Below are positions 5,313 to 29,815 of a stretch of 64,000 nt of DNA, in pieces. The stretch is from positions 6,751 to 70,750 of the forward strand of contig JACCXN010000009.1 in the NCBI GenBank assembly GCA_013696965.1, given 5' to 3'. The translations under genes were made by a program, and so were the position numbers. Position 1 is the stretch's first letter; the number at the start of each line of letters is the position of its first letter. The stretch is from Bacteroidota bacterium (lineage in GTDB: Bacteria > Bacteroidota > Bacteroidia > JACCXN01). The notes beneath the pieces are model-generated. The model was not told the DNA's origin. It saw only the letters and a program-made list of their open reading frames with translations, and did no database searches.

Positions 5313-5412
5313 CTTTTTCGTTTAATTGTAAATATATTGTAAATTTATTTAGCAGAGACTTTTCAAATTTGATTTTTTTAACTGCCTTGATGTAATTATA
5401 GTAAAACAAAGA

Positions 5413-5889: not shown

Positions 5890-6041
5890 ATTTAAGCATT
5901 TCCTGAAATTTTCTATATTCCTTTCACTCGTTTTCTATTTTAAATGCTGAACTATTTATATTGGTGCAAATGATTCTGAAATAGAATAACTTATAAATGT
6001 TTAAATTTGCAACAATGAAAAATGCCATGCGTTTCTGATTT

Positions 6042-6485: not shown

Positions 6486-6523
6486 GATGAAAGCAATAGC
6501 ATTGTTATGAATATTAGGCTAAA

Positions 6524-7510: not shown

Positions 7511-9027
7511 ATAATAAAAAAATAGCACTTCTTATACTGGATGGTTGGGGAAAGGGAAATGGATCAGAATCTGATGCAATTGCAAATGCACAAACCCCAT
7601 TTATTAATAGTCTTTATAAAAAATATCCCCATTCCCAATTAGTAACTTCAGGGGAATCTGTTGGGTTGCCTGAGGGGCAAATGGGAAATTCAGAAGTTGG
7701 CCATTTGAATTTGGGAGCAGGAAGAATTGTTTACCAGGATTTAGGAAAAATAAACATGGCCATCAAGGACAAGAGTATTGAAACAAATGCTGTTCTTAAT
7801 GATGCTTTTAATTATGCCAAAGAAAACAACAAACCTGTTCATTTTTTAGGTTTGCTATCTGAAGGGGGTGTTCATTCCTCGCAGGCTCATTTGCATAAAT
7901 TATGTGATATGGCAAAAGATCATAAAATAGAAAATGTATATATTCATGCCTTTACAGATGGCAGGGACACGGATCCAAAAAGTGGGTTGAATTATTTATC
8001 CCTTTTGCAAAAACATCTTGAAAATTCAGCAGGACAAATAGCTACCGTAATAGGACGTTATTTCGCAATGGACAGGGATAAGAGATGGGAAAGAGTTATG
8101 ATAGCTTATAACGCAGTGGTTAAAGGCCAGGGAAGCAAAACAAAAGATGTTCTTAATGCTGTAAGAGAATCCTATGAAAATGGTGTAAGCGATGAATTTA
8201 TTAAACCAATACTCAATACAGATGAAAACGGGACTCCCATAGGGTCAGTAAAACAGGGAGATGTGGTAATTTGCTTTAATTTTAGAACGGACAGGTGCAG
8301 GGAAATAACAATGGCTTTACATCAACAGGATTTTCCGGAATATGAAATGCATAAGTTGAACTTGTATTATGTTACAATGACAAATTATGATGATCGTTTT
8401 AAAAATGTTAAAATTATTTTTGAAAAGGATAATTTAATCAATACTATAGGTGAAGTACTTGCCAGGGCTAATAAAAAACAATTAAGAGTAGCGGAAACAG
8501 AAAAATACCCTCATGTTACTTTTTTCTTTTCAGGAGGACGCGAAAAAATATTTGAAGGCGAAAAAAGAATTTTGGTTGCCTCTCCAAAGGTTCCAACCTA
8601 TGATTTAAAACCTGAAATGAGTGCACAAGAACTTACATTAGAATTAATTCAGCAAATAGAAAATTCAGAGGCTGATTTCATTTGTGTTAATTATGCAAAT
8701 CCTGATATGGTAGGGCATACTGGCGTTTATAAAGCTATTGTAAAAGCAGTGGAAACGGTTGATAAATGTGCAGAACAGGTAGTTAAAAAAGGATTAGAGA
8801 AGGGTTATTCTTTTTTAATACTCTCGGATCATGGCAATGCTGATTATGTATTAAATAAAGATGGCTCCCCAAATACAGCCCATACTACCAACCCTGTTCC
8901 CTGTATATTGATTGATCGGGATTATAAACAAATAAAAAATGGCAAATTAGGCGATATTGCTCCAACTATTCTAAAAATGATGGCGGTAGAAATTCCAAAG
9001 GAAATGAATGGCGATTGTCTTGTTTGA
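7507..9027 (+). CDS. gpmI: 2,3-bisphosphoglycerate-independent phosphoglycerate mutase.
   Basis: Canonical iPGM N-terminus (ALLILDGWG…SGESVGLPEGQMGNSEVGHLNLGAGRIVYQDL) and C-terminal metal-site motifs (LSDHGNAD…TAHTTNPVP). 506 aa. Confidence 0.95.
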   Translation: MNNKKIALLILDGWGKGNGSESDAIANAQTPFINSLYKKYPHSQLVTSGESVGLPEGQMGNSEVGHLNLGAGRIVYQDLGKINMAIKDKSIETNAVLNDAFNYAKENNKPVHFLGLLSEGGVHSSQAHLHKLCDMAKDHKIENVYIHAFTDGRDTDPKSGLNYLSLLQKHLENSAGQIATVIGRYFAMDRDKRWERVMIAYNAVVKGQGSKTKDVLNAVRESYENGVSDEFIKPILNTDENGTPIGSVKQGDVVICFNFRTDRCREITMALHQQDFPEYEMHKLNLYYVTMTNYDDRFKNVKIIFEKDNLINTIGEVLARANKKQLRVAETEKYPHVTFFFSGGREKIFEGEKRILVASPKVPTYDLKPEMSAQELTLELIQQIENSEADFICVNYANPDMVGHTGVYKAIVKAVETVDKCAEQVVKKGLEKGYSFLILSDHGNADYVLNKDGSPNTAHTTNPVPCILIDRDYKQIKNGKLGDIAPTILKMMAVEIPKEMNGDCLV

Positions 9028-9077
9028 CCTGGTTTTAAAAACTCTTTTGCCGACTTTTTTAGAAAGTTTAAAGTCTT

Positions 9078-12000: not shown

Positions 12001-12239
12001 AAAGGAATATCAATATCTTTAATAAGTACATTGGCAGAGTTATAAATAGCAACATTGGCAGGATTGTCAAATGCAGCAGTTCCGGATTTACAATCCCTGT
12101 ACATTGCAATAGTAATCCTATAACTGTTGTTTCCCAGGCATTCATAGCTTACAACACCTCCAATTATATGTGTGGCTTTAATACTGAAGGAATTACCCAA
12201 CAATAAAAAAATAATACATATAAAATTCAGTTTCTTCAT
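9078..12239 (-). CDS. Large secreted surface protein: an N-terminal ~300-aa domain, four PKD-like modules (two highly similar and in tandem), and a T9SS type B CTD (CHU_C, the gliding-motility-associated C-terminal domain).
   Basis: Signal peptide MKKLNFICIIFLLLGNSFSIKA. The repeats FCNGFDVAFQNNSFNASSFLWDFGV… and FCDGFTVSFSNNSFNANSYLWDFGV… are each about 165 aa, with weaker copies at …YYWTFGDP… and …YLWNFGDGN…. The C-terminal YVPNAFTPDSDGLNDVFKPII…FNRWGEMIFK… matches the type B CTD. Confidence 0.8.
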   Translation of the reverse strand: MKKLNFICIIFLLLGNSFSIKATHIIGGVVSYECLGNNSYRITIAMYRDCKSGTAAFDNPANVAIYNSANVLIKDIDIPFPGSVQLATTINSPCYSPPSNICVEEAIYTVIVNNLPPIPGGYTITYQRCCRNNTILNLVDPGATGATFTAHIPGTEVITTCNSNPVYKEFPPIFLCNGMSLEFDHSATDIDGDSLVYEICDPFAGATNTDPMPDPPMPPPYYYVNWNPPYNGSYPMSSNPVLSINPQTGVLIGRPNLTGQWVVGICVSEYRNGVLLSRTIRDFQFNVINCPGLIVSAFPSQTLFCNGFDVAFQNNSFNASSFLWDFGVVGVSNDTSVLATPIFTFPTSGTYTVTLIANPYTSCSDTSYSTFDVQPLLAPILLTSDPLCLTGNSFGFNAGGVFGSSAEFSWSFSSGVPSNSNQQNPAGITFPDIGTFPVSLTISENGCSKTVTGSVNVIPDVIAEFPAQAIFCDGFTVSFSNNSFNANSYLWDFGVPGITSDTSSFATPTFTYPSSGIYTITLVANPYTSCADTAYSTYEVYPLLEPLISAPNPSCFTGNYFGFNAGGSFGANANFNWSFPEGNPNASNQQDPTGIVFPDTGLFQVSLTIIENGCSRTVSSTVVVVPDAVADIDQQRVFCGGYTYDFTNLSQNADTYYWTFGDPSNPGAYSTEFEPSYTYPDSGWYTVTLVATGPFCSSTVSQTFSIYPLLKTDFVNPGVLCFKAHDLSFAAGGVFGETASFFWDFGPDANIQSSTNATVPNVFFNSPGIFNVNLIIQENGCTSVKSANVELLLSPVAALELIEKSGCMPLKVEFKEASTSATPLTYLWNFGDGNKSDEKSPEHMFFNPGSYDVSLTVKTETGCIDSSSISIPRLVTVHPFPEANFTILPLEASIFEPKFILTNESKGDSRCIYYFGDGNTSSQCDVEYFYADTGDYQITQIVYSQFECPDTASGIVRVNPEYRFYVPNAFTPDSDGLNDVFKPIIIGEREYEMLIFNRWGEMIFKTTDKEIGWDGRAKNGKLPAQQEVYSYIISLTNVFNRSFVFSGHVTLLR

Positions 12240-14523: not shown

Positions 14524-15741
14524 ATGAAAAATAAAAGCATTATAATTGTTGGAGCGGGTGCAGCCGGAATTTTTGCAGCAATAAACGCTGCAAAAAAAAA
14601 TCCTCAAATAGAGGTTACAGTGCTTGAAAAGTCTTCAAAATTATTGGCTAAGGTAAAGGTTTCAGGTGGCGGAAGGTGCAATGTTACCAATGCTTGCCAG
14701 GAGACAAAGGAACTAGTAAAAAACTACCCCCGGGGAAATAAAGAACTTGCCTTGTCTTTTTCAAAGTTCAATACAACCGACACTGTTAATTGGTTTTCAC
14801 AAAGAGGAGTAGAACTTAAAGCAGAAGCTGATGGCAGAATGTTTCCTCTCACCAACAGTTCGCAAACAATTATTGATTGCCTGCTTAAAGAATGTAAGGA
14901 TTTAGGAGTAAAAATATATACTAATTCAGATGTTAAATCGATAGTTAAAAAAGCAAATAGCTTTGACCTTTCTCTTGCTTCGGGACAAATCCTTGAATGC
15001 AATAAATTATTAATTGCAACTGGAGGAAGCAATAAAGCAGAATCTTATAAATGGCTTGAAGTTCTTGGGCATAGCATTGAGATTCCCCTCCCCTCTTTGT
15101 TCACTTTTAATATAAAGAATAATAGTCTTTCTCAATTAGCAGGTATTTCGGTTAAACTGGCCACTGTAAAAATTGCAGGAACAAAATTAATTCAAAAAGG
15201 CCCTGTACTTATAACCCATTGGGGATTAAGCGGGCCTGCAGTTCTTAAACTATCTGCGTGGGGAGCACGCATACTTTATGAAAAAAAATACATCTATACG
15301 GTATTAATTAACTGGCTTTTGGAGCAAAACGAAGAACAGGCCAGGGAATTTCTGGAAGAATACAAAACTGCAAACCCTTTAAAAAAAGTTTCAGGAACAT
15401 CTCCTGTTAATCTTCCTTTAAGACTATGGCAGTATTTGGTTTCAAAAGCAGAAATAGATGCAGAAACAAAATGGAACAATCTTTCGGGGAAAAATTTCAA
15501 TAGGTTAATAAATAATCTTGTTTGTGATGCATATGAAGCTTCAGGAAAAACAACATATAAAGAGGAGTTTGTTACCTGCGGAGGAATTAAACTAAATGAA
15601 GTAGACATGCAAACTATGGAAAGCCGTTTATGCAAAGGACTATTCTTTGCAGGTGAGGTAATAAATGTTGATGGAGTAACCGGAGGTTTTAATTTCCAGG
15701 CAGCATGGACAACAGGCTGGCTAGCATCCCAGGCAGTGTAA
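14524..15741 (+). CDS. HI0933-family NAD(P)/FAD-dependent flavoprotein (BaiN / aminoacetone-oxidase-like).
   Basis: N-terminal Rossmann motif IIIVGAGAAGIFAAINAAK and family signature KVSGGGRCNVTN; 405 aa. Confidence 0.85.
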   Translation: MKNKSIIIVGAGAAGIFAAINAAKKNPQIEVTVLEKSSKLLAKVKVSGGGRCNVTNACQETKELVKNYPRGNKELALSFSKFNTTDTVNWFSQRGVELKAEADGRMFPLTNSSQTIIDCLLKECKDLGVKIYTNSDVKSIVKKANSFDLSLASGQILECNKLLIATGGSNKAESYKWLEVLGHSIEIPLPSLFTFNIKNNSLSQLAGISVKLATVKIAGTKLIQKGPVLITHWGLSGPAVLKLSAWGARILYEKKYIYTVLINWLLEQNEEQAREFLEEYKTANPLKKVSGTSPVNLPLRLWQYLVSKAEIDAETKWNNLSGKNFNRLINNLVCDAYEASGKTTYKEEFVTCGGIKLNEVDMQTMESRLCKGLFFAGEVINVDGVTGGFNFQAAWTTGWLASQAV

Positions 15742-15798: not shown

Positions 15799-17187
15799 CT
15801 AGAACAATTGGTTATTCAGGTGTGTTTTATATCCCATTATGCCATTTCCAAACTTAATTCTAAGTGTTGTATATCCCTTTTCATATATAGTATCTGGAAT
15901 AGAGGATTTTTTCATTGTTCGAATCAATGGATATTTTCCATAGGAATCATTTTCTAATTGAAACACAATTTCTTCACCCCGGTTTATTATGTTAATAATT
16001 TTATGATCTTCCACAACAATACCACTACTTACAAGAAAATTTGTTAAAAAAAACAGGCACAGTACAGCTGGCATAATTCCAAAAAAAGCATAAAGCACAA
16101 AGTCCATGGGCTTTAGAATATTGTTATTAATTACCAGATACCGATACTGAAAAAGTGTGGCCAAGACTGCTCCAATCAATGCAATTTTCACTAAATCTTC
16201 AATTGGTATAATGGTAAAAGACGGGAAAAGCATCATGGTAATAATGCCCAGGAATATGCCAAATAACATTACAGAATAGGTCCAGTGCCAGGTGTGGTAT
16301 TTGTAATTCTTTTTTATTGTTTTTGGAATTGGAATTAATCGTGCATTCCTGTTAACACTTTCCAAAAAATTTACATTGAGCATGTAATTGCTGTTATTAT
16401 TTAGTGGATCCTGATTGAGTAAAAAACATAGGTGATTGTAAATATCCGGTAGTTCCTCCTTGAAAGAAAGGGGATTTTCAAAAAAATGTTCTATACATAC
16501 TGCGAAAAATTCATGTCTGTTTGTTCCACCGTATTCCCTTAATAGAGATTTATTTTTTCTTTGAAGCCTTGCAAATTCTGTTTTGCCAATTTTAAGCCAT
16601 TCATCCAGATAAAAAGAAAATTTTTCATCAAAATGCTTTCCCTTTAAAACGTTAATCTTAAGGACATGGGCCATTTCATGCAAACCCAGGTTATAATTGT
16701 CATGCGGGTATTTATAGCCTTTTAAAAAATCTTCCCATGAAATCATTAGAACTCCTTTATTTGAAGCACCACCTTTTATCTCCGCCTGCAAAAGTTTTGA
16801 ATAAAAATAACGTGGGTAAATTTTAATTGTAGTAAAAAAATCCAATAAAAATTCATCCAGGCCAAAAGTAAGCTGAATGGCTGAAGCCGAAATTAAAACC
16901 TTCATTTCATTTGTAACCTTTAGTTTTTCCATCCCCTGAAATTTCTTTAATCTGATAAAATCCACTAACCTGGCCATAAATTTTACTTTTCCTTCCTTAT
17001 TCAAATTTGTGTAATATTGAAAGTATCGGGATAATATTTCATCGTATTGGGAATAATCAGAAAAATTAAAGGATGAATACTGGATTGCTTTTTTTTTGAC
17101 TAAATTCAAAATGCTATCCCTGAACTCTGTAAGTGAGAGCATAATTAGGGAAATAGCAGCAAAAAAAACCAGGTAGGGTAATATCAT
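15799..17187 (-). CDS. Membrane-anchored MtfA-like (peptidase M90) zinc peptidase fused to a C-terminal polytopic membrane domain.
   Basis: HExxH zinc motif HEMAHV plus YGGTNRHEFFAVCIEHFFENP, which matches the MtfA family. The N-terminus has a TM helix and the C-terminal ~160 aa hold 3-4 predicted TM helices. Confidence 0.6.
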   Translation of the reverse strand: MILPYLVFFAAISLIMLSLTEFRDSILNLVKKKAIQYSSFNFSDYSQYDEILSRYFQYYTNLNKEGKVKFMARLVDFIRLKKFQGMEKLKVTNEMKVLISASAIQLTFGLDEFLLDFFTTIKIYPRYFYSKLLQAEIKGGASNKGVLMISWEDFLKGYKYPHDNYNLGLHEMAHVLKINVLKGKHFDEKFSFYLDEWLKIGKTEFARLQRKNKSLLREYGGTNRHEFFAVCIEHFFENPLSFKEELPDIYNHLCFLLNQDPLNNNSNYMLNVNFLESVNRNARLIPIPKTIKKNYKYHTWHWTYSVMLFGIFLGIITMMLFPSFTIIPIEDLVKIALIGAVLATLFQYRYLVINNNILKPMDFVLYAFFGIMPAVLCLFFLTNFLVSSGIVVEDHKIINIINRGEEIVFQLENDSYGKYPLIRTMKKSSIPDTIYEKGYTTLRIKFGNGIMGYKTHLNNQLF

Positions 17188-17328: not shown

Positions 17329-19365
17329 ATGGGGAAAGAAACGACATTTACAAATAGGCTTGCAGAGGAAACAAGTCCTTATCTTTTACAGCATGCACAC
17401 AATCCTGTTGATTGGTTTCCCTGGAGTGATGAGGCTTTTGAAAAAGCAAAGAAAGAGGATAAACTAGTTTTGGTTAGTATAGGATATTCAGCCTGTCATT
17501 GGTGCCATGTTATGGAGCGGGAATCTTTTGAGAATCAAGAAACAGCAAGATTAATGAATGAAAAGTTTATTTGTATTAAAGTTGACCGTGAAGAAAGACC
17601 AGATGTTGATCAGGTATATATGACAGCTGTTCAATTAATGACAGGTACTGGTGGATGGCCTTTGAATTGTTTTACCCTCCCTGATGGAAGACCAGTTTAT
17701 GGAGGCACCTATTTCTCACCAGAGGATTGGAAAGCGGTTATCAATGATCTTTCTGAAGTATATAAAACTCAACCTGAAAAAGTACTTGAATATGCAGAAA
17801 AGTTGACGCAAGGGGTTCATTCAAGTGATTTTGTTCAGGTGAATACAAAAGCTCCTGAATTTACTATAGATACATTAAAAAGTGCAGTAAGAAAATGGTC
17901 GAAAAAATTCGACCGAATTGAGGGAGGTACCACACATGCACCAAAATTCCCTATGCCAAACAACTACTTGTTCCTTCTTCAATATGGGTATTTAAGCAAA
18001 GATGAACAAGTAAACAATTATGTAAAAACCTCACTTGAGAAAATGGCAATGGGTGGAATTTATGATCAGGTAGGGGGAGGTTTTTCACGGTATTCAACAG
18101 ATATGCTATGGAAAGTTCCACATTTTGAAAAAATGCTATATGACAACGCTCAACTTGTAAGTTTGTATTCGGAGGCATATCAGGCTGAAAAAAATCCGTT
18201 GTATAAACAAATAGTTTACGAAACAATTGAATTTGTAACCCGGGAATTAACAGCGGCAAATGGTGCTTTTTATTCCGCACTCGATGCCGATACTGAGGGT
18301 GAAGAAGGCAAGTATTATGTTTGGAAAAAAAACGAATTGGAAAACCTGTTAGGAACAAATTTTAAAACTGCCGTTGAATATTACAATATCAACAATTATG
18401 GAAAATGGGAAGATGGTTTTATTTTGTTAAGAAGGCATAGTGATGAGTATGTATCAAAAAAACTCAACATTGGTTTAGATGAGTTACAAAAGCAGGTGAA
18501 AGACATTAAATCTGTGCTTTTTCAGGCAAGGGAAAAAAGAACCAAGCCAGGTCTTGATGACAAATCTTTGACCTCCTGGAATGCTTTAATGCTAAAAGGT
18601 TTTACTGATGCATACAAAGTTTTTGGAGAACAGGAGTTTTTATTTGCTGCACTTAAAAACGCGAATTTTATTTCCGGTACTCAAAAGACTACTGATGGAG
18701 GATTATACCACAATTACAAAGAAAACAAATCAACGATAAACGGATACCTGGAGGATTATGCATTCACCATTGAAGCTTTTATAAGCCTATATGAAGTAAG
18801 CTTTGACATCCAATGGCTGGAAAAAGCAAAAGAGTTGATGGAATATACAATTGATAATTTCTATAACACGGAAAATGGGATGTTCTATTTTACTTCAAAA
18901 AAAGACAAGCCATTAATTTCCCGTAAAATGGAAATTACTGATAACGTAACTCCTGCATCAAATTCAAGCATTGCAAAATCTTTGTTTATGCTGGGGAAAT
19001 ATTACGAAAATGAAAAATATGCATCCATGTCTAGCAAAATGCTTAACAACATAAAGGATGAATTGGTTGAATTTGGAGCTAGTCATAGCAATTGGGCTAT
19101 TTTGATGCTTTATTATACTATGCCGTTTTTTGAAATTGTAATAATGGGGGTTGATGCTGAATTTAAAAGACAAGAACTCTCCAATTATTATATCCCTAAC
19201 AAAATTCTTGCAGGCGGAACACAGGAAAGCCATTTGCCGCTTTTCACAGACCGCCATATTCATGATAAAACAACTATTTATGTTTGTGTAAACCAGTTTT
19301 GTAATCTTCCGGTTAACGATATTAATGATGCTGTTAAGCAAATAGATGAATTGTTGGGTGGATAA
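17329..19365 (+). CDS. Thioredoxin-domain (DUF255 / YyaL) protein with a six-hairpin glycosidase-like C-terminal domain.
   Basis: N-terminal …[46 protein letters not shown]… is the DUF255 thioredoxin-like signature; 678 aa, as in YyaL/SPATA20-like proteins. Confidence 0.85.
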
Positions 19366-19501
19366 AAGAGGGTTTTGTTAAATAAATGTATTTAAAAATT
19401 ATTAAGCCAATTTTTCGAGCTGTGTTGCAGATTGAGGGTGATCATAACCTTGTTTGGTTGGTTAAGTCTTTTCAAGGGAATAATAAGAGTGATGTTTCCC
19501 A

Positions 19502-20986
19502 TTAAAAAAAATCTTCTTTGGGTAAACTAAATGTAATTGTTGTTCCTTTCTCTTCTTCACTTTCAATGGTAATTTTCCCTTTATGCTTTTCAACAAAGCT
19601 TTTTACAAGTGTTAAACCTAATCCGCTGCCAGCTTCATTTTCTGTCCCTATTGATGTTGGGAATATATTTTCCCTAAATAAATTATCTCTAATTTGAGCA
19701 GTCATTCCAACTCCGGTATCTTTAATTTTTATCTCAACCCTTTCGCCTTTAACCTGCGCATCTACTGTTATTTTCCCATATTTAGGGGTGAATTTTATGG
19801 CATTGGTTATTAAATTTTGAATTATTGAGCGCAGCATATTTATATCGGCTTTAACTCTAATTTCAGCACTAACATGGTTATTGATTTGAATTTCTTTCTT
19901 CTGTGCTAACTCCCTGATTAATTTTATGGAATCTTCAACTGCCCCGTATAATTCAATTTTTTTAGGTAAAAAGATTATTTTATTCTGCTGTGATTTAGCC
20001 CAATCTACTAATTCATCAAATTGCTTTACTAGTTTATTCGTTGAATTGTTTATTACCAGGGCCATTTGTTGAATGTCATTTAAGTCCATTTTATAAATAT
20101 TTTTAGCTAAAATCTCGGAAGAACCTGCCATTGCTGCGAGGGGATTTTTTAGATCATGAGAAATTACTTGAATGAATTTATCCTTGCCTTTATTGAGTTC
20201 CTGCAATTCGAAATTTACATTTTCAAGCTCCAGGGTTCGCGCCTCCACCCTTTTTTCCAGTTGCTCATTCATTTTTTTTAGTTCTTCCTGTGATATTTTT
20301 AAAAGGCGATAATCATTGCTTATTCTTTTGTACATTCTAATAAGGAAAAAGGTCATAAAAAACACCGTGAGTATTCCAATGGCAATAAGACAATTACTGA
20401 TTTGTTTAAATCCATTGATTTTAGCAATTGATTTATTGGTTTCATATTCAGCATCTTTAATCATTAGGTCTGAAAGTTCATCCAGTTCAGTTATATAAAT
20501 GTCAAAATAAGGCCTTATTTGCTGCTTTTCATAATTTATTGGAATAGAAAGGGCTTCCCTATTACTCAATGAAATTCCTTCATTCAATTTCTGCAAATAT
20601 TTATCCCTTGCTCTTTTAGCATCATCAAATTTATTTCTTACTAAAGGATCTACAATTGAAATAGGGAGATCAACATAAAGTTCAAAACTTTCCTGAAGCA
20701 TTCCATGCAACTCTTGTTCTAATAAAAACTTTTCCTTTATATCAGTTTCATCTAAATGATGTAGCAAATATATTTCCTGTAAGCCTGCATTGAGCTGAAT
20801 TTTTCCAATTGAAGAAAGTTGTTCCAGTGAGGTTCGCTTTAAAAATTCTATTGCTCTTTTATAATTCTGAATACTTAAATAATTATAAATGGCGACTGTA
20901 ATTAACAGTGTTGTAATTATTATGAAGATAAAAAGAATTTGTTTTCTAATTGAAAATCCTCTTGTTTGTATATCCTTAAATATCAT
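19502..20986 (-). CDS. Membrane sensor histidine kinase: two TM helices flanking a ~150-aa periplasmic domain, then a coiled-coil, HisKA and HATPase_c.
   Basis: H-box ISHDLKNPLAAMAGSSEIL; ATPase …NAIKFTPKYG…DTGVGM…GSGLGLTLVKSFVEKHKG. Confidence 0.85.
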   Translation of the reverse strand: MIFKDIQTRGFSIRKQILFIFIIITTLLITVAIYNYLSIQNYKRAIEFLKRTSLEQLSSIGKIQLNAGLQEIYLLHHLDETDIKEKFLLEQELHGMLQESFELYVDLPISIVDPLVRNKFDDAKRARDKYLQKLNEGISLSNREALSIPINYEKQQIRPYFDIYITELDELSDLMIKDAEYETNKSIAKINGFKQISNCLIAIGILTVFFMTFFLIRMYKRISNDYRLLKISQEELKKMNEQLEKRVEARTLELENVNFELQELNKGKDKFIQVISHDLKNPLAAMAGSSEILAKNIYKMDLNDIQQMALVINNSTNKLVKQFDELVDWAKSQQNKIIFLPKKIELYGAVEDSIKLIRELAQKKEIQINNHVSAEIRVKADINMLRSIIQNLITNAIKFTPKYGKITVDAQVKGERVEIKIKDTGVGMTAQIRDNLFRENIFPTSIGTENEAGSGLGLTLVKSFVEKHKGKITIESEEEKGTTITFSLPKEDFF

Positions 20987-21214
20987 TTTCTATTTCTTTC
21001 ATTTGTTCCATTTCATTAACAGTTTTGACAAAAATTAGTCCTAAGTTCAGGGCTAATGAATACAATGCTCTTTGTACCTTTTTTAGATAAATAATCTACT
21101 AAAAATTGAGTATAAATTGAAACACCGATAGAGCAGCTTTTCACCATTTTTACTTTTTTTATGGACTTAATGAAAAGGAATAATAGCAAAATCATAAAAA
21201 CAATTAAACCAATA

Positions 21215-23176
21215 TTATACCCTCACTCCCATTACACAAACATCATCCACTTGTTCGTAATTTCCTTTCCATTTGGTGAACTCAGTGTCTAAAACCTGCA
21301 TTTGAACACTTGGCAGATCATTCATTATTCGAATAAGGTTTTCTTTAAATGCTTTATACTTGTATTTCTTTCCATTAGGGCCACCGAACTGATCGGGAAA
21401 ACCATCGGAAAATATACAAATGATGTCTCCTTTATGAAGTTGTATGATATGATTTGTATAGGCAGTTCTTTCGGAATGAATGCCTATTGGTTGTTTATTT
21501 GGTTTAAATTCCACTAACTGTGGCTTGACAGCTAATTTTTCCGGGAAAAATACAACTTTTGAGCTTGCCTTAAATCTTTCATTAGCTCTATGGGGAAGTA
21601 TGTAAAGGGGGTTATTGGCTCCTGCCCACTGCAACTCATGAGTTTGAGGATTAAAGGAGCACAAGGAAATATCCATTCCGTCTTTTACTTCCTGCTCACT
21701 TTTTTCAAATGCTTCGATTACCAACTCGCGTGTTTTATTTAATATTTGCGCTGGTTCAGTAAGGAGAAATTCTCTCACACTCCTGTTTAATGCATTCACA
21801 CAAACAATGCTAACCATAGCTCCGGGCACACCATGACCTGTGCAATCAGCAACTGCAAACAATATAAGCTTTTCTGCTTTTCTGCCTTTTGGTGTAACTG
21901 TTTCTAACCAATAAAAATCGCCACTAACAACATCCTTTGGTTTGTAAAACAAAAAACTTTCAGGCAGAACCTGGGTTAACAATTTAGCAGGAGGCAAAAT
22001 CGCTTGTTGGATTCTGAGTGCATATTTTATGCTGTCCTTAAGTTCTCCGTGGAACTCTTCTATCAGCTCCTTTTGCTTGGAAATTTCTTCGTTTTTAATT
22101 TTAAAGAATTTGGTTTGCTGTTCAGAAAACATATTGGATTTTATTTCCTCATATCTTTTAAAATAGTCAAGGGATTGCTTCCAATCGTTTAACTTTTCAT
22201 AACATTCTGCAAGATATTTATAAATGGATTGCGTTTTAACTATTGCATTGTATTTAAGGGTAGATACCAAGGCTTCTTTAAAAATGAAAATTGCATGGTT
22301 AAGGTCTCCTTTTTTAATGTTAAGACTACCCATTAGAATATACGAGGTTGTAGCTGCATCCAAAAGATTGGATTCAATCCTGAGTTCATAGCTTTTTCTG
22401 CAATATTCTATTGCTTTATCAATCTCTCCAACTAATTCATAATAAACAGCCATATCATACCAGCTCCTTGCTAGTTGGGAACCCGGACGCGCAGCTTCTA
22501 TTGCAGCTATAAAATGTTCTTCGGATCTGGCATAATCCTTATTGTTTAGGTAAAGATTCCCTAAACCACTATAGAGTCTGAATTTTGCTGAATGAATTAT
22601 ATTCTCCTTTCCAAAATTAAGGCCCTGCTTGTAATAACTTTCTGCCGATTTAAATTCTCCTAATGTAACATGCAATTCGCCAAGGAAATAATATGCCAAT
22701 AAGGCATAAGTAGCATAGGAGCCCAGAGGGTTTATTAATCTTGGAACTTCAAGCAGGTGAAACAAGGCTTTATCATATTGGCCAAGACTCCTATAGTTAC
22801 CACCACAGAACAATCTTGCCATTGCCTCAATCTCTTTGTTTTCCCATAGAACATTTGGAGGCAGAACAGCTAAAAAATTTATTTCGGCTTCTGCACAATT
22901 ACTTTCAAAGAAACCCTCTATTGCGCATACCAGCCTTATATAATCCTCTGCGTGAGGGCTTAAAGAATAAATTGAACACAGTTCCTTAACGATTACGGAC
23001 TGCTTTTTCAATTCATTCAAATCGCCATTTGAGGCTACATCCCAAAATGCTATAATTGCCTCATGTAATTTATCGGGGTTAAACTGAATTTGTGGAATTG
23101 TTAGCTTTATAACACTCATACTAATAATAATTGCGCCATTGAAAGGAGTTTGTGTTACTTTGCATCCTGTTTTCAA
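21215..23176 (-). CDS. TPR-repeat sensor fused to a SpoIIE/PP2C-type serine phosphatase.
   Basis: Multiple TPR-like helices (…YYELVGEIDKAIEYCRKSYELR…) and a C-terminal phosphatase signature VVSGDFYWLE…AVADCTGHGVPGAMVSIV…ICIFSDGFPDQFG. The true start may be an internal Met (MSVIKL…). Confidence 0.8.
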   Translation of the reverse strand: MKTGCKVTQTPFNGAIIISMSVIKLTIPQIQFNPDKLHEAIIAFWDVASNGDLNELKKQSVIVKELCSIYSLSPHAEDYIRLVCAIEGFFESNCAEAEINFLAVLPPNVLWENKEIEAMARLFCGGNYRSLGQYDKALFHLLEVPRLINPLGSYATYALLAYYFLGELHVTLGEFKSAESYYKQGLNFGKENIIHSAKFRLYSGLGNLYLNNKDYARSEEHFIAAIEAARPGSQLARSWYDMAVYYELVGEIDKAIEYCRKSYELRIESNLLDAATTSYILMGSLNIKKGDLNHAIFIFKEALVSTLKYNAIVKTQSIYKYLAECYEKLNDWKQSLDYFKRYEEIKSNMFSEQQTKFFKIKNEEISKQKELIEEFHGELKDSIKYALRIQQAILPPAKLLTQVLPESFLFYKPKDVVSGDFYWLETVTPKGRKAEKLILFAVADCTGHGVPGAMVSIVCVNALNRSVREFLLTEPAQILNKTRELVIEAFEKSEQEVKDGMDISLCSFNPQTHELQWAGANNPLYILPHRANERFKASSKVVFFPEKLAVKPQLVEFKPNKQPIGIHSERTAYTNHIIQLHKGDIICIFSDGFPDQFGGPNGKKYKYKAFKENLIRIMNDLPSVQMQVLDTEFTKWKGNYEQVDDVCVMGVRV

Positions 23177-23332
23177 ATATACCCAAAATGTTAACTGTGT
23201 GTTTATAATGGAAAAAAAATATTAACATATTGAGAAATAATATATTTTTGATTACGAGTAGGAGGGCTTATCAGGGAACAAGAAGGGTTAAAAGTAAATC
23301 ACAACTTAAGTATAAAATTTAAACTGAAAAAC

Positions 23333-23749
23333 ATGAGCATAATAAAGGAATTCAAAGAATTTGCCATGAAAGGCAACTTAATTGACATGGCTGTTGCATT
23401 TGTAATGGGAGTGTCCTTTGGAAAAGTAGTAAGTGGATTTATTGATGGTATTGTTATGCCGGTTGTGGGTAAAATTATTTCAGGAGTTGATTTTAAATCA
23501 TTGAAATATATTTTATCAGAGGCACAAATAGACGCCTCAGGTAAAGTAATTGCACCGGAAACATCAATTAAATATGGCGAATTTATTACAATTTTAATCG
23601 ACTTCATTTTAGTTGCTTTTTTTATGTTTATGGTAATTAAAACAATGAATAAGTTAAAGAAAAAACAGGAGGTTGCACCCGTAACACCTCATCTTACTAC
23701 ACTGGATCAAAAACTTTTGAAGGAAATACGTGATTTATTGAAAAAATAA
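23333..23749 (+). CDS. mscL: Large-conductance mechanosensitive channel.
   Basis: MSIIKEFKEFAMKGNLIDMAVAFVMGVSFGKVVSGFIDGIVMP… is canonical MscL; 138 aa. Confidence 0.9.
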   Translation: MSIIKEFKEFAMKGNLIDMAVAFVMGVSFGKVVSGFIDGIVMPVVGKIISGVDFKSLKYILSEAQIDASGKVIAPETSIKYGEFITILIDFILVAFFMFMVIKTMNKLKKKQEVAPVTPHLTTLDQKLLKEIRDLLKK

Positions 23750-23838
23750 AAAGAATAAACTGAAGTGGTAAACCAATTTAGAAAAGTTAATTGGAATCGA
23801 AAAATTTTAAAAAATAAATTGAATTAACTCAAAATAGT

Positions 23839-24474
23839 ATGGTAATGAATCCTAACATGAGTAGATTGGTTTTAACTACTCATATTACATTTTCAGCAGG
23901 CTGGCTTGGTGCAGTGGTGGTTTTCCTTGCCCTTGCCATAACAGGTATAACTAGTCAGGACACCCTTCTGGCCCATTCGGCTTATCTTGCAATGGAATTA
24001 AGTGCATGGTTTGTTATCATACCATTTTGTTTGGCTTCATTAATTACTGGAATTGTTCAAGCATTGGGGACTAAATGGGGCTTGTTTAAACGTTATTGGA
24101 TAATAGTTAAATTATTTCTGACACTTGTTTCCACAGTTGTTTTGTTGCTTCATATGCAGCCTATTAGTCATCTTGGAGCATTAGCAAGTGATTTATCATC
24201 ATCAAAAATTTTACAATCAAATTTCCGCATACAAGTAATAGCAGAAGCAGGTGCCGCTATTTTAGTTTTACTTGCAGCAACAACAATTTCTGTTTATAAA
24301 CCATGGGGGAAAACAAAGTTTGGCCAGGATGAAAAAATTCAAAAATTAAATACGCAAGAAAAGACTGTGCAAACCAAAAAAACATTGAAATTTTATATGA
24401 TTTTTGGTTTAATAAGTTTAATTCTTATTTTTATTTTAATGCATCTTTTAGGGGGAGGTATGGGAAGACATTAA
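23839..24474 (+). CDS. Hypothetical polytopic membrane protein (about 5 TM helices).
   Basis: Hydrophobicity pattern only; no motif recognised. Confidence 0.45.
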   Translation: MVMNPNMSRLVLTTHITFSAGWLGAVVVFLALAITGITSQDTLLAHSAYLAMELSAWFVIIPFCLASLITGIVQALGTKWGLFKRYWIIVKLFLTLVSTVVLLLHMQPISHLGALASDLSSSKILQSNFRIQVIAEAGAAILVLLAATTISVYKPWGKTKFGQDEKIQKLNTQEKTVQTKKTLKFYMIFGLISLILIFILMHLLGGGMGRH

Positions 24475-24519
24475 CTTTTAAATCAAATAGAAAAATTAGT
24501 TGAAAAAAAATAACCTTGC

Positions 24520-25068
24520 ATGAAACTCCACGCTAATAAAAAATCCCTTGTTTTAATATTACTCTTGTTTTGCTTTATAAGTTGTGTTCAAACTAACAAG
24601 ATGGATGATTACTTGATTTCTTTTTCAGATGAAGAAAACAATGATTATGGCTATAAAAATAAGATGGGAGATACCATAATTCCACCTGGGAAGTACACAA
24701 TTTGCTTTACTGATACTTTTAAAACTTATGCTATTGTATTTGAATCAAGCATTGGCTTTGTAGCTATCGACAGGCAGGAAAATATATTATATAAAGTTTA
24801 TCCTTTTGATAATGGCCCTGATTATCAATCTGATGGATGTTTTAGAATAACACATGAAAACAAAATCGGGTTTGCTGAAGCTGAAAGCGGAAAAATTATT
24901 ATTGAGCCCCAGTTCGATTGTGCTTATCCATTTGAAAAAGGCCTTGCCAAGGTGAGCATAAATTGCCAGGCACAGTCAGAGGGTGAACATGCATTATGGA
25001 TCAGTGAAAATTGGTTTTACATCGATAAAACAGGAAAAAAGTTTCACAGCCCGACAAATACTAAATAA
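24520..25068 (+). CDS. WG-repeat (KWG-like) lipoprotein.
   Basis: Lipobox …LLFCFISCVQ. The repeated pattern …IGFVAIDRQENILYKVYPFD… / …KIGFAEAESGKIIIEPQFDCAYPFEKGLAKVS resembles WG-containing repeats (KIGfid.sGkivIeP.FD.a..F.eGLA.V). Confidence 0.5.
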   Translation: MKLHANKKSLVLILLLFCFISCVQTNKMDDYLISFSDEENNDYGYKNKMGDTIIPPGKYTICFTDTFKTYAIVFESSIGFVAIDRQENILYKVYPFDNGPDYQSDGCFRITHENKIGFAEAESGKIIIEPQFDCAYPFEKGLAKVSINCQAQSEGEHALWISENWFYIDKTGKKFHSPTNTK

Positions 25069-25403
25069 TGAACTTAAAGGGTATATAAACAGGAAAAAAT
25101 TCAATAAAGTCAGCTCCGGACAGCAAACAAATGAAAAAGGAGCAAATTTTTGGCAAACTATATTCATTCTTTTGTTTATTAATTCCCTTAACATGAAAAG
25201 GAAAAACCAATTGGCAGAAAAAATTTATGGTTTTCTATTTCCTAAAATTGAAACTTCAAAAAAACATTTCAACACAATTCAATAAAAGGTTTTAATTGTT
25301 TAAAACCCGAATATTTTTAAATTCTCTTTTTGAACATTGATTGTAATAACAAAAACAAATATTACGTTTGTGCAACATAAATCAATTACAGCTTTCGCAT
25401 TTT

Positions 25404-26303
25404 ATGATTAAATTTTATTTCAGCCTTTTAATGGTGGTTTTTATTGTATTAAAATGCGATGCACAAATAATTGATGCCGATAGAAATCCTTATTCAAAAG
25501 AGCCTTTTTTTAATCCGGAATTTATTCTGAGTGAAAACATAAAATCAATTACAGGCGCATTTCATTACAAAAGAGACAACGAAAAAATGTATGACAAGGG
25601 CATTATTGTAAAATATGAATTTGACTGCAATGGAAGGCTCGAAAGACTGTATAACACCTTTAAAAAATATGGAGGGGAAACGGATACGCTTTTTGTTTTT
25701 TATGAATATGACAGCATTGGTAGATTAAATGTAAAACGAACTACCGACAATTTTGGCTTCTATTCAATAAATTACTCCTATAATGAATCCGGGAACATCT
25801 TTCAGGAAACCTATTCCAGGGAATTAAATGCAAATTCATATTCTGGACAGTTTATACTTTCTAAGCAATATGCAATGGGCGTTGAAAAGTTCGAATTTAC
25901 TTATGTTTCCCCTGTTTATTATACCAAAAAGCTGCTAAATAGCTTGGGTTTGCCTTTTAAGGAAATTAGTTATTTGATGAATGAAAATGGAAAGTTAATT
26001 GAAGAAACAGGAACTTTCCTTTCCATTAGGCATGTTGAACGAAAAAAATATATTTATAACGATAATGGAAAGCTTAGTGAAAGCAATGAATCTTCTGATT
26101 TGGGGCAAAATAGTACCATACACTATATTTATGCTTATGATCAAAAAGACCAATTAATTGAAATAAAAAAACTGAAAAATGAAGAGCCGGTTAAGGTTAC
26201 TGAATTTATGCTAAATGAGAAAGGTTTTTTAACCAATGCTCTCAGCAGGGATATTGCCGGGAAAATTATTGATGTTACTAAATTCAGTTATGAATTTTAT
26301 TAA
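25404..26303 (+). CDS. Small secreted YD-repeat (RHS-type repeat) protein, about 300 aa.
   Basis: Signal peptide MIKFYFSLLMVVFIVLKCDAQ. At least five YD-like repeats (YEFDCNGRLERL, YEYDSIGRLNVK, YLMNENGKLIEE, YIYNDNGKLSES, YAYDQKDQLIEI) match the Y-x-Y-D-x-x-G-R/K-L consensus. Confidence 0.5.
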   Translation: MIKFYFSLLMVVFIVLKCDAQIIDADRNPYSKEPFFNPEFILSENIKSITGAFHYKRDNEKMYDKGIIVKYEFDCNGRLERLYNTFKKYGGETDTLFVFYEYDSIGRLNVKRTTDNFGFYSINYSYNESGNIFQETYSRELNANSYSGQFILSKQYAMGVEKFEFTYVSPVYYTKKLLNSLGLPFKEISYLMNENGKLIEETGTFLSIRHVERKKYIYNDNGKLSESNESSDLGQNSTIHYIYAYDQKDQLIEIKKLKNEEPVKVTEFMLNEKGFLTNALSRDIAGKIIDVTKFSYEFY

Positions 26304-26334
26304 GTAAGGACTGGCTTTTTTAAACAGTAGAAAA

Positions 26335-27030
26335 TCAGAATTTTTTTTTGGGTACTGTGCTTACAAAATCTTTTAAATAATAGGGTTCAAAATAAGCGGT
26401 ATCTACGAACATCCTTTTATTAAAAGAGTTTTCTGCAAGAGGCGCCATTGTTGCAGATGATGGATAAACCTCATTCAAAAAAAAAGCATTTGGATTAGCT
26501 CCTAACAGATCTTTGCATTTTTGAGAACCATCTCCAAAAAAATATATTTTGTTCCTAGCCAAAAGATCATTAAAAGAATCATCCTGAATAATTTTAGCCT
26601 CAATTTCTTGTATCAGTACATTTTCTTTATTAAAAACAGCACAGTATACCTCCATTCTCCTTGCATCAATCATTGGGCAAAAAAGAACATCAGGGGAAGT
26701 ATTTTTTAATTTTAAAGCAGCAGACAGAGCCATTTGTTGCAATGTACTCACAGCTATAAGTGGAATATCAAGGGCATAACAAAATCCTTTTGCTGCAGAT
26801 ACCCCTATTCGTAATCCTGTATATGAACCTGGGCCCATGCTTACTGATATTGCGTGCAGCCTATCCATTGTAAGGCCAGCTTGTTTTAATACATCAGAAA
26901 CAAAAACAGTAAGTTTTTCAGCATGTGCATACTCTCCGTGATGTTCCTTTATTGCAACTACTTCTCCATTGTTAGATATGGATACAGAACAGACCTGAGT
27001 AGCTGATTCCAAATTTAATATTAACGCCAC
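26335..27030 (-). CDS. tsaB: tRNA threonylcarbamoyladenosine (t6A) biosynthesis protein TsaB (YeaZ).
   Basis: MALILNLESATQVCSVSI…MGPGSYTGLRIGVSAAKGFCYALDIPLIAVSTLQ is the TsaB/YeaZ signature; 231 aa. Confidence 0.85.
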   Translation of the reverse strand: MALILNLESATQVCSVSISNNGEVVAIKEHHGEYAHAEKLTVFVSDVLKQAGLTMDRLHAISVSMGPGSYTGLRIGVSAAKGFCYALDIPLIAVSTLQQMALSAALKLKNTSPDVLFCPMIDARRMEVYCAVFNKENVLIQEIEAKIIQDDSFNDLLARNKIYFFGDGSQKCKDLLGANPNAFFLNEVYPSSATMAPLAENSFNKRMFVDTAYFEPYYLKDFVSTVPKKKF

Positions 27031-27035
27031 CTAAT

Positions 27036-28364
27036 CTATTTCCTTTTAATTATTTCTTCCTCTTCAATTTTCAATACCACAGGGTCGCCTTCTTTAAGGG
27101 TTTTGGAAACCAAAGAATAGGGACCGGTTATTATTTGTTCACCGGCATTGATTCCAGAAACAATTTGAATGAATTTATTATCCTGAATACCAATTTTAAC
27201 TTTTTTCATTACAGCTTTATCATTTTCCATCACAAATACACATTCCTGCATTACCGGGTCCACTTTAGCACTGTTGCCTGCTTTTGTTTTTTCTAAACTT
27301 GTGGCAGCAGTATCCTCCCTGGTAGTTACCGCCTGTATAGGTACGCTAATAACATCATATTCGGTTTTGGTTTGTATTTCAACCGTTGCAGACATTCCTG
27401 GTCGAAAAGGAGAAAGATGTGGCTTGTCTTCAAGAATTAAATCTGAATAGGAAGAGCGTAGGATCCTTATCCTTACTTCAAAATTAGTAACCTGGTCTGC
27501 ACTTAAACCAAAAGTTTTAGCTGAGTTGGCAATCTGAGTGACTATCCCTTTAAATTTCCTGTCTTTATACGCATCAACTTCAATAATAGAAGTATCTCCA
27601 ACCATAATCCTAACAATATCATTCTCGTTAACATCCACCTTCACCTCCATTTCTTTCAAATTTGCAATGCGCATCATCTCTGTACCTGCCATTTGTAAAG
27701 TTCCTACCACCCTTTCGCCCTGCTCAACATTAAGCATGGAAACGGTACCATCCACCGGGGCGAAAATAGTTGTTTTAAGCAAATTGTCACTTGCTTCTTT
27801 TACAGAAGCCTCTGCACTTTTCACATTATATTGGGCTGCAATAATACTTTGGTCAGCAGACTCTACTTCTGCTCTTGCAACCTCATAGGCTGATTTTGCC
27901 GCATCAAATTCAGATTCAGAAATTGCCCCGTCCTTAAATAAAGATTGATTTCTTTTGAAGATGGCCTCAGAATTTAAAAACTGGGCATTTGCCTGTGATA
28001 ATCTTGCTTTTGAATTTGCAAGATTAGCTTTAGTTGTATTTAAAGCCGCAACCATTCTTTCCCGCATGGAGAGATAGATATCAGGATTTATTTTTGCCAA
28101 AAGTGTTCCTTGTTTTACTTCCTGGCCTTCCTTTATCAAAAGTTGAACTATTTCACCAGAAACATCAGGACTAATTTTTACCTCAACCTCGGGCTGTACC
28201 TTTCCATTTGCTGAAACAGTTTCGATAATTATTTTTCGCTCGGATAATTCCATGACCACTGATTCTGCCTCATTTGTCATTTGTTGATTAACTATAACTC
28301 CAACAAATAAAACAACTCCTGCAATAAGAAAATACCAGTAAGTTTTAATTTTTTTTCCTGCCAT
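27036..28364 (-). CDS. Efflux periplasmic adaptor (HlyD/MacA-family membrane fusion protein).
   Basis: N-terminal TM anchor, long coiled-coil hairpin (…LANSKARLSQANAQFLNSEAIFKRNQSLFKDGAISESEFDAAKSAYEVARAEVESAD…), beta-barrel C-terminal domain. Confidence 0.85.
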   Translation of the reverse strand: MAGKKIKTYWYFLIAGVVLFVGVIVNQQMTNEAESVVMELSERKIIIETVSANGKVQPEVEVKISPDVSGEIVQLLIKEGQEVKQGTLLAKINPDIYLSMRERMVAALNTTKANLANSKARLSQANAQFLNSEAIFKRNQSLFKDGAISESEFDAAKSAYEVARAEVESADQSIIAAQYNVKSAEASVKEASDNLLKTTIFAPVDGTVSMLNVEQGERVVGTLQMAGTEMMRIANLKEMEVKVDVNENDIVRIMVGDTSIIEVDAYKDRKFKGIVTQIANSAKTFGLSADQVTNFEVRIRILRSSYSDLILEDKPHLSPFRPGMSATVEIQTKTEYDVISVPIQAVTTREDTAATSLEKTKAGNSAKVDPVMQECVFVMENDKAVMKKVKIGIQDNKFIQIVSGINAGEQIITGPYSLVSKTLKEGDPVVLKIEEEEIIKRK

Positions 28365-28378
28365 AACTCTATTCTTTT

Positions 28379-29815
28379 TTATTCTAATACCAAAGGTTTT
28401 CCCTGGTAAAAATCCAGTACTTTCAACTTAAAAATATAATCGTACTTGGCCTGAAGCAAATTGGATTCAGCATTCACCAAACGATTTTTAGCATTGTTGT
28501 ATTCAATCGCATTTAACATTCCCACATTAAAACGTTGTTCAGCATATTTAAAAGATTCCTTAAGTGCTTCCATTGATCGTGCAGTTGCATGGTGTTTTTT
28601 CAATGCAGCCACTGCATCGGCATGGGCCTGTGTCACTGTTCTGCTTAGTTGCAATTCGGCAAGTTCTAAATTATATTGAGCATTGTAACGTGCAATTTTT
28701 GCTCTTGAAACAGCCGAGCGAGTTTGAAGTCCGTTAAATATTGGAATAGTCATGAAAAAACCAATTGATTTGTTGTAATTCTCATTAATTTGATCATTAA
28801 AAGGAATTGGCTCAAAAACAGGGTTGAATGCAGGAGTAACAACAAGTTCCTGGGTGTTTGCCGTATAACCTATGGTTTGAAAACCATCCGGTTCAGCTCC
28901 AATCAGCCGCTGTCTTAATCCTGAATAACCTGTTCCTAAAGCTCCATTTACAAATATTCTTGGGCTTATTCCACCTTTTGCAATTGCAACTCCCTTATCT
29001 GAACTTCTAACTCGGGCTTGTGCACTTTTAATTTCAGGCATTTCCTTTGCAGCATAGGTAAAAATAGTCTCTGGACTAGCAGTTAATATGTCTCCAACAG
29101 GAAGTTGCAGAATAGGTCTTACTATATTTAATTCCTTATCAAGCGGCAAGGCTAAAAAATGCCTGAGTGACAAGTAGGCCATATCCAATTGATTTTGAGA
29201 ATTTACAAGGTTCAATTCTTCGGTAGCTAATTGTGCTTCCACTTCCAGAAGACTTCCCCTGGCAAGAGTTCCGGCCTCAACAAGCCTGGTGGTTCGCTTT
29301 ACCTGCTGTGTTGTAATGTCAACCTGATTAATTGCAATTTGCATTAATTCCTCACTAAATAATATCTGCAAATAAGCAGTGGCAATGCTAAGAGAAATAT
29401 CGTTTTTTATTCTTTCTGAATCATACTTGTTTGCCTGGTATTCAAGCTGTCCCTGCTTTATGCTATTTACGTTTTGAAAGCCACTAAACAAATTCAATCC
29501 TCCGGTTAAGGAAAAATTATTCGAACGAATCATGTCATCCGCAAATTGATTTGTAAAGGGATCAATGGTGCGTCCAAAATTATATGAATGTGATGCATTT
29601 CCATTTACACTTGGAAGGGAATTAGCTCTGTTTTGCCATGAATTTACATTGGCCAATTCAATGTTCAAATTAGCCTGCTTTACCTGTATGTTATGTTCAA
29701 GAGCATAATCAATGCATTGTTTCAAATTCCATTTCTCCTGTGAAAAAGAAATGATTGTTGTAAAGGATAAGAGCAACGAAAGCCAAATAGTGCTGTTTTT
29801 CTTAATCAGGTTCAT
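28379..29815 (-). CDS. TolC-family outer-membrane efflux channel.
   Basis: Signal peptide, two tandem coiled-coil/beta repeats typical of OEP/TolC (…ANKYDSERIKNDISLSIATAYLQI…, …NLELAELQLSRTVTQAHADAVAAL…); 478 aa, 14 nt upstream of the adaptor gene. Confidence 0.85.
   Translation of the reverse strand: MNLIKKNSTIWLSLLLSFTTIISFSQEKWNLKQCIDYALEHNIQVKQANLNIELANVNSWQNRANSLPSVNGNASHSYNFGRTIDPFTNQFADDMIRSNNFSLTGGLNLFSGFQNVNSIKQGQLEYQANKYDSERIKNDISLSIATAYLQILFSEELMQIAINQVDITTQQVKRTTRLVEAGTLARGSLLEVEAQLATEELNLVNSQNQLDMAYLSLRHFLALPLDKELNIVRPILQLPVGDILTASPETIFTYAAKEMPEIKSAQARVRSSDKGVAIAKGGISPRIFVNGALGTGYSGLRQRLIGAEPDGFQTIGYTANTQELVVTPAFNPVFEPIPFNDQINENYNKSIGFFMTIPIFNGLQTRSAVSRAKIARYNAQYNLELAELQLSRTVTQAHADAVAALKKHHATARSMEALKESFKYAEQRFNVGMLNAIEYNNAKNRLVNAESNLLQAKYDYIFKLKVLDFYQGKPLVLE

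Follow-up and report, generated by a model that had tools for sequence, protein, structure and literature searches.

The window analysed here is a stretch of 64,000 nucleotides (nt) from the genome of a Bacteroidota bacterium (GenBank assembly GCA_013696965.1, contig JACCXN010000009.1, positions 6,751 to 70,750 of the forward strand), and its point of interest is a run of three open reading frames (ORFs), the third of which, gene 3, encodes a small protein with YD repeats. ORF calls and Pfam matches of the flanking genes agree with the preliminary description of this DNA, which had placed three co-oriented genes between mscL and tsaB: mscL lies to the left (23333-23749; PF01741, 127 bits), and tsaB, convergent with gene 3, to the right (26335-27030, minus strand; PF00814, 100 bits). 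Gene 1 (23839-24474, plus strand) encodes a protein of 211 amino acids (aa) with five transmembrane segments; gene 2 (24520-25068, plus strand), 45 nt from gene 1 on the same strand, a probable WG-repeat lipoprotein of 182 aa; and gene 3 (25368/25404-26303, plus strand) a standalone YD-repeat protein, predicted to be exported. For gene 3 the alignment of homologs favours the ATG at 25404 as the start, which yields a product of 299 aa.

As judged by its sequence, gene 3 is a YD-repeat protein. It contains five YD cores by a strict pattern and seven by a loose one, compared to 0.03 and 0.20 expected, and none of 5000 shuffled sequences reached the observed counts. At least five repeats had been proposed in the preliminary description; all five of the motifs quoted there were found, as were two more, YSYNESGNI and FMLNEKGFL. 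With the curated hidden Markov models (HMMs) the outcome depends on what is scored. While gene 3 alone is a near miss with both PF05593 (19.4-19.7 bits, cut-off 22) and TIGR01643 (14, cut-off 15.8), so that the proposed HMM check fails narrowly for the single sequence, it succeeds at the level of the family, where PF05593 matches 54 of 70 aligned members (best E 5.6e-12) and TIGR01643 38 of 70 (best E 3.2e-9). The same dependence is seen with proteins of solved structure: a phmmer search of the PDB sequences with gene 3 by itself returned no significant match, and the gene 3 family profile finds RhsA (7q97, 1.4e-14), 8h8a (1.2e-10), Tse15 (5e-7) and Tse5 (1.5e-6), its matches being essentially restricted to Rhs, teneurin and Tc proteins, with BVU_2266 matched weakly. 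Since the family matches PF05593 and TIGR01643 and its profile finds solved Rhs proteins, we take the YD call to be right. Some relatives already carry the NCBI and IMG labels ‘RHS repeat domain-containing protein’ or ‘YD repeat-containing protein’.

A word-indexed search for gene 3 returned just 11 close clusters. To size the family we relied on an exhaustive profile search of 1.84 billion representatives (clusters at 50% identity), which yielded 2429 family representatives at E<=1e-3, 437 at E<=1e-10 and 158 at E<=1e-30. Almost every one is ~300 aa long and gives a single full-length, end-to-end match, and because of this the ~300 aa of gene 3 do not represent a truncation. The preliminary description had considered an orphan fragment of an RHS system; this idea is ruled out by the full-length ~300-aa family, in which the size of gene 3 is the norm; the family also has its own signal peptide, and a promoter-like box is conserved in the clade of gene 3. 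A related explanation, that gene 3 is a pseudogene fragment or other decayed remnant of a large Rhs gene, could draw on its small size and on the sub-threshold HMM scores of the individual protein. However, hundreds of ~300-aa proteins are conserved over their full length, the gene 3 ORF is intact, with its signal peptide, N-terminal PFFN motif and C-terminal strand all conserved, and the AlphaFold2 model, described below, is a very confident single domain; we give this explanation practically no credence. Instead, gene 3 is likely to be complete and vertically inherited, and to belong to a so far unnamed family of standalone ~300-residue YD proteins in Bacteroidota. Vertical inheritance is indicated by gene order: the block HI0933, M90, DUF255 ... 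gene 3 ... tsaB, MFP, OEP is colinear with that of relatives. Neither Pfam nor NCBIfam has a model dedicated to the family, and in the literature on DUF4595, DUF255 and small YD proteins we found no functional study of it.

The N-terminus of gene 3 encodes a signal peptide (25404-25463, plus strand; residues 1-20, MIKFYFSLLMVVFIVLKCDA), with a predicted signal peptidase I cleavage between Ala and Gln that would expose Gln21. Among the 70 aligned members the residue following the signal peptide (+1) is Q in 68, and the one preceding it (-1) is A, G or S in 66. Signal peptidase I substrates of Bacteroidetes that follow the ‘Q-rule’ have an N-terminal Gln, which is converted to pyroglutamate by cyclisation (PMC5837995, PMC10653852). 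The site in the gene 3 family is consistent with this rule, both cleavage and cyclisation being predictions. We considered and rejected a lipoprotein assignment, as Cys18 is not conserved and Q21 is nearly invariant, and HMM scans of gene 3 and the 70 family members detected no C-terminal domain of the type IX secretion system (T9SS). The earlier picture of a small, signal-peptide-bearing YD protein with no housekeeping assignment is borne out.

Gene 3 is set apart from gene 2 by an AT-rich spacer, which had been described as a non-coding gap. The gap is real; measured up to ATG 25404 it spans 25069-25403, that is 335 nt, with a GC fraction of ~0.25-0.26. Rfam gave no match on the spacer at E<=1 and so no candidate for a non-coding RNA or riboswitch. 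At its right end, ~35 nt upstream of the ATG, lies a promoter-like box (25341-25370, plus strand: TTG, 19 nt, TAcgTTTG), and the block TTGTAATAA..AAACAAA..TTA.GTTTGTG.AA is conserved with two related loci (L007 and L019). Promoters of Bacteroidota have the consensus TAnnTTTG, and the box upstream of gene 3 matches this type, making it a putative promoter. Conservation with the same two loci is limited to ~70 nt next to the gene 3 ATG and does not extend to the remainder of the spacer; the gap is therefore mostly the 5′ region of gene 3 itself. A scan of 23200-26500 with the sigma-70 consensus found seven promoter-like sites compared to 16 ± 4 in shuffled sequence, a result that is uninformative for a Bacteroidota genome; the deficit is consistent with a genome that uses TTG/TAnnTTTG rather than -35/-10 promoters. 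A 100-aa ORF with a GTG start (24983-25285, plus strand) overlaps gene 2 at its end and takes up most of the spacer; this ORF is probably spurious, because it lacks homolog support and the region is unconserved in relatives.

Structure prediction had been suggested as a way of seeing whether the YD protein can form part of a β-shell, and the models do show nine hairpins in a barrel-like sheet. With an alignment of 11 sequences AlphaFold2 reached a predicted local distance difference test (pLDDT) score of 82.8, and with 70 sequences a pLDDT of 94.3 and a predicted template modelling (pTM) score of 0.86. Both models have the same topology, in which the signal-peptide helix is followed by a short N-terminal segment that is conserved (PFFNxxFI) and by 18 antiparallel strands arranged as nine hairpins. 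The conserved PFFN helix comprises residues 34-43, and K56, E161 and N179 are invariant. The mature protein is accordingly modelled as two short N-terminal elements followed by nine YD-type β-hairpins, and in the model seven of the nine hairpin turns carry a YD core (Y-x-Y-[DN]-x-x-G-x-L). The predicted sheet is strongly curved, like that of a barrel of 16-19 strands, from which we infer that the barrel may close. Foldseek against the PDB ranked Rhs cores, Tse5, Tse15, teneurins and TcB/TcC at the top, with E from 5e-9 to 1e-5. The TM-scores to these big shells are low (0.2-0.37), and the matches are therefore local, not global. The best matches of similar size were the Bacteroides ‘porin-like’ protein 4ghb (DUF4595, TM 0.41/0.46) and 3tzg.

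A barrel of ~18 strands raises the question of whether gene 3 could be an integral outer-membrane β-barrel, a porin-like channel inserted by the β-barrel assembly machinery (BAM). We regard this as improbable. In the 70 family members both faces of the strands are ~10-45% charged and the mean hydropathy is mostly negative, so that a lipid-like face is absent from every strand; some strands, LSESNESS, LNVKRTTD and LIEETGTF among them, are polar over their whole length. Nor is there a conserved C-terminal aromatic residue, the last residue being Y, F or W in just 24 of the 70. Sequence homology points to soluble YD shells, and the related small proteins 4ghb and 3tzg, although labelled ‘porin-like’, crystallised as soluble proteins. 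Since both of its strand faces are polar or charged, gene 3 is best read as a soluble shell rather than a membrane pore.

To establish whether the three genes belong together, we compared the three proteins by tblastn with 22 fetched loci, of which L001 is the window's own genome and 20 come from other genomes; profile scans with the gene 3 homolog alignment yielded three loci from metagenomes and four from genomes. Genes 1, 2 and 3 occur together in L001 only, and relatives of gene 3 have neither gene 1 nor gene 2 nearby. The preliminary description had left room for the trio as a functional unit, that is, a co-functioning envelope module of membrane protein, WG lipoprotein and YD protein. 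The shared strand and the 45-nt spacing of genes 1 and 2 speak for such a module. It is nevertheless extremely unlikely: the trio is found in none of the 20 loci from other genomes, the closest relatives, at 68-69% identity (L007, L018), are already without the other two genes, gene 3 is set off from gene 2 by the 335-nt spacer with its conserved promoter-like box, and the relatives of gene 1 sit in metal-efflux clusters, those of gene 2 behind OmpA-like genes. By gene order, then, the trio is a chance juxtaposition, with genes 1 and 2 unrelated neighbours of gene 3; it reflects a local rearrangement, and annotating it as a system is unwarranted.

A different partner emerged when the neighbouring ORFs were clustered across the loci of the gene 3 family and confirmed with Pfam. 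In 10 of 12 informative loci a DUF255 protein of 665-679 aa is encoded directly upstream of the gene 3 relative on the same strand. Five of these loci belong to the window's clade (L003, L005, L006, L007 and L022; 48-68% identity to gene 3) and five to Flavobacteriales (L008, L009, L010, L020 and L021; 24-27% identity). In the window, the corresponding DUF255/Thioredox_DsbH gene (17329-19365, plus strand) encodes 678 aa, scores 236.8 bits with PF03190, has a CHWC motif at residue 56 and lacks a signal peptide. It is preceded by genes for an HI0933-like flavoprotein (14524-15741, plus strand) and a Peptidase_M90 protein (15799-17187, minus strand), both assigned by Pfam, which form the left part of the conserved block and are found in the same order in L002, L003, L005, L007 and L022. 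On the right flank, tsaB is followed by MFP (27036-28364) and OEP (28379-29815), and the order tsaB-MFP-OEP after gene 3 is the same in L003, L005, L006 and L022.

The window is colinear with its relatives except for two differences. One is a START-domain gene that lies between gene 3 and tsaB in L003, L005, L006 and L022 and is absent in the window. The other is a segment of ~5.7 kb between DUF255 and gene 3 (19366-25068), seen in this genome only, which holds a histidine kinase gene (19502-20986, minus strand), a TPR-SpoIIE gene (21215-23176, minus strand), mscL, gene 1 and gene 2. We looked for signs of a mobile element at the boundaries of the segment and found none, the direct and inverted repeats bounding it being short AT-rich chance matches only; insertion of a mobile element between DUF255 and gene 3 was therefore rejected. 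In L007, a related TPR-(GAF)-SpoIIE gene is located on the opposite flank of the gene 3 relative.

In Flavobacteriales the two genes are tightly packed: DUF255 and the gene 3 relative are 1 nt apart in L008 and L010, and in L009, L020 and L021 they overlap or are at most ~40 nt apart. In L008 they are part of a four-gene cluster (4628-9214; junctions of 3, 1 and 8 nt), also present in L009, L010, L020 and L021. The order in L008 is a secreted thioredoxin-like protein (449 aa, CSHC), DUF255 (CHWC), the YD protein and a secreted, very basic protein; the latter is 98-101 aa long in the Flavobacteriales cluster, is extremely rich in Lys and Arg, ends in ...HSWGKDVPWYKRWFRKDKF and belongs to no Pfam family. 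The tight packing suggests that the two genes are co-expressed and have some connection to thiol-redox or to maintenance of the envelope. In our favoured view, DUF255 is the conserved, ancestral upstream partner of gene 3. This recurrent pairing offers a concrete handle for experiments, DUF255 being itself an uncharacterised thioredoxin-fold protein.

YD repeats are best known from toxins, and the preliminary description had raised the possibility of an immunity or adaptor-like component of a polymorphic toxin. As an explanation this would make gene 3 the immunity protein, adaptor or decoy of an Rhs/polymorphic-toxin or type VI secretion system (T6SS) located elsewhere in the genome, and it could appeal to the homology of the YD repeats to Rhs shells and to DUF4595, a distant relative of the gene 3 family, of which one B. 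fragilis lipoprotein was suggested to be a T6SS immunity protein on annotation alone (PMC11854122). The neighbourhood argues otherwise. Neither in the window nor in the 11 related loci with enough flank (L019 being too short) is there a toxin, RHS-core, PAAR, VgrG or T6SS gene near gene 3; the 64-kb window has no other YD-rich or very large RHS-like ORF; and in gene 3 and the 70 family members Pfam and NCBIfam gave no match beyond the repeat, such as one to the RHS-associated core or aspartyl autoprotease. Furthermore, gene 3 sits in a colinear block of housekeeping type and diverges in step with its neighbours, unlike polymorphic cassettes. We consider a role in a toxin system very improbable. 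The window does contain two very large ORFs, both on the minus strand (53359-60354, 2331 aa; 9078-12239, 1053 aa, the latter with a signal peptide). Neither has YD cores, and both resemble surface, gliding or T9SS-type proteins of Bacteroidota.

Taken together, we think it likely that gene 3 is a complete, exported member of a YD family that forms a soluble, barrel-like shell, has DUF255 as its ancestral partner and acts in binding or containment. The protein would be exported, with Gln21 probably pyroglutamylated, and would reside in the periplasm or on the periplasmic face of the outer membrane. The paired Tyr of a YxY point to the same side of their strand, which would give the sheet a Tyr-rich face; this tyrosine-lined face may hold a ligand or a segment of polypeptide, which would make the protein a one-domain miniature of the Rhs/teneurin shell. 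Gene 3 would thus be a non-catalytic module for binding or containment, and its co-expression with thioredoxin-fold proteins in some lineages hints at a role in envelope redox or maintenance. A new small envelope module, one of the options named in the preliminary description, is in keeping with this for gene 3 alone or with DUF255, and falls for the trio.

Several points weigh against parts of this interpretation. The binding or containment role is proposed by analogy only. Gene 3's own scores with PF05593 and TIGR01643 lie under the curated cut-offs. Since DUF255 lacks a signal peptide and the product of gene 3 is exported, the two proteins are unlikely to be direct physical partners. In the window 6 kb separate their genes, L002 and L004 have no DUF255 near the gene 3 relative, and gene 3 has a promoter-like box of its own in the window's clade. 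The 12 informative loci amount to only ~3-5 independent lineages. The step to envelope redox or maintenance is consequently a weak one, with DUF255 cytoplasmic, the pairing broken in the window and in two further loci, and few lineages covered.

A bolder version, which we put forward tentatively and consider unlikely as a whole, sees the YD proteins of ~300 aa as ‘mini-cocoons’, closed and soluble, that would be the smallest YD shells complete in themselves. With DUF255 they would make up an unrecognised Bacteroidota module for envelope thiol-redox or maintenance, joined in Flavobacteriales by a TlpA-like thioredoxin and a basic protein of ~100 aa, both secreted, and the barrel would serve to sequester or chaperone one specific ligand or peptide of the periplasm. 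If this were true, YD shells would be a containment fold of general use, older than toxin delivery or independent of it. Our favoured view of gene 3 is of interest without this extension: YD/RHS repeats have been studied almost solely as the giant cocoons of toxins and teneurins, and this family, of considerable size (at least 437 clusters at E<=1e-10), consists of Sec-exported YD proteins of a single domain that lack a toxin context, so that the YD repeat would also serve as a small stand-alone envelope module.

The other two genes of the run are members of families with neighbourhoods of their own. The earlier reading of gene 1 as a polytopic membrane protein holds, given its five hydrophobic segments of 19 residues. 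It has 2130 homologs at 57-69% identity, and no Pfam family scores above threshold on it; DUF2269 (PF10027) reaches 11.8 bits against a cut-off of 28, in an alignment that spans the profile, and one homolog carries a precomputed PF10027 match. The family can be described as one of unannotated, weakly DUF2269-like proteins of ~210 aa with five transmembrane segments. In all three loci with gene 1 relatives (L016, L017 and L018) these lie in copper/heavy-metal clusters, next to CusA/CusB, HMA P1B-ATPases, a Csp copper-storage protein and AraC regulators, which suggests that the gene 1 family is an unrecognised membrane protein of metal homeostasis. In the window, gene 1 has no metal-resistance neighbours of that kind.

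Gene 2 passes the WG_beta_rep model (PF14903, 38.3 bits, cut-off 25.6) and has a lipobox-like ...FISC, with a similar Cys in 63 of 118 homologs, in line with the WG-repeat lipoprotein of the preliminary description, although lipoprotein status is no more than probable. Its 456 homologs at 55-67% identity belong to a large Bacteroidota family named ‘WG repeat-containing protein’. In L012-L015 the gene 2 relative is followed by genes for two proteins without annotation, one of 188-199 aa and one of 110 aa, and in L012-L014 a DUF3592-like protein of ~419 aa is also encoded nearby. Directly upstream of the gene 2 relative, L011 and L012 have an OmpA-like gene, which in L011 comes after PorP/SprF. 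In the window, gene 2 adjoins none of these recurrent neighbours.

How does gene 3 compare with systems already described? Among small proteins its nearest relatives are 4ghb (DUF4595) and 3tzg (BVU_2266), the structures of which were solved in 2011-2012, and the DUF4595 profile is known to co-match RHS regions (PMC6079546). With such YD-related Bacteroides structures available, and with annotation pipelines already naming relatives of gene 3, calling the protein ‘atypical’, as was initially done, overstated the case. Gene 3 does not itself pass the DUF4595 model (PF15283, 10.2 bits, cut-off 34.2). Only 4 of the 70 family members give weak matches to DUF4595 and one of 70 to BVU_2266-like (PF22054), the members of the gene 3 family are longer than DUF4595 and BVU_2266-like proteins, and the family profile does not retrieve 4ghb at E<=1. 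To the extent that sequence comparison can place them, the DUF4595 and BVU_2266-like proteins are a sister family of gene 3 and not the same family.

Membrane barrels of 16-19 strands (Wzi, Tom40/VDAC and the OprD family) share 3-8% identity with gene 3, which amounts to no sequence relationship, and in contrast to them gene 3 has a polar and charged surface without a lipid-facing belt and no conserved C-terminal aromatic residue. The open barrels of LolA, LolB and RseB consist of 11 strands with a helical lid, have no YD repeats and give much weaker matches; they are a functional analogy only.

The shells of Rhs proteins, of the Tc BC component and of teneurins (7q97, 8qjd, 8cp6, 4igl and 7bam) are closer, as they share with gene 3 the same Y-x-Y-D-x-x-G-x-L hairpin repeat and, in the gene 3 model, a curved antiparallel sheet as the shell (profile E 1.4e-14, Foldseek E 5e-9). 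The differences are of size, parts and delivery. While Rhs, Tc and teneurin shells exceed 600-1500 aa, gene 3 manages with ~300 aa and nine hairpins; it has none of the core/aspartyl autoprotease, N-terminal plug domain, encapsulated toxin and PAAR, VgrG or TcA partners of the Rhs and Tc proteins; and, at 299 aa in total, it has no domain after the last hairpin, where it departs from the Rhs toxin or Tc cocoon. It carries a Sec signal peptide, whereas the Rhs and Tc proteins use T6SS or Tc delivery. Gene 3 stands outside the Rhs toxin class, and at the level of the repeat it is homologous to the Rhs/YD shells.

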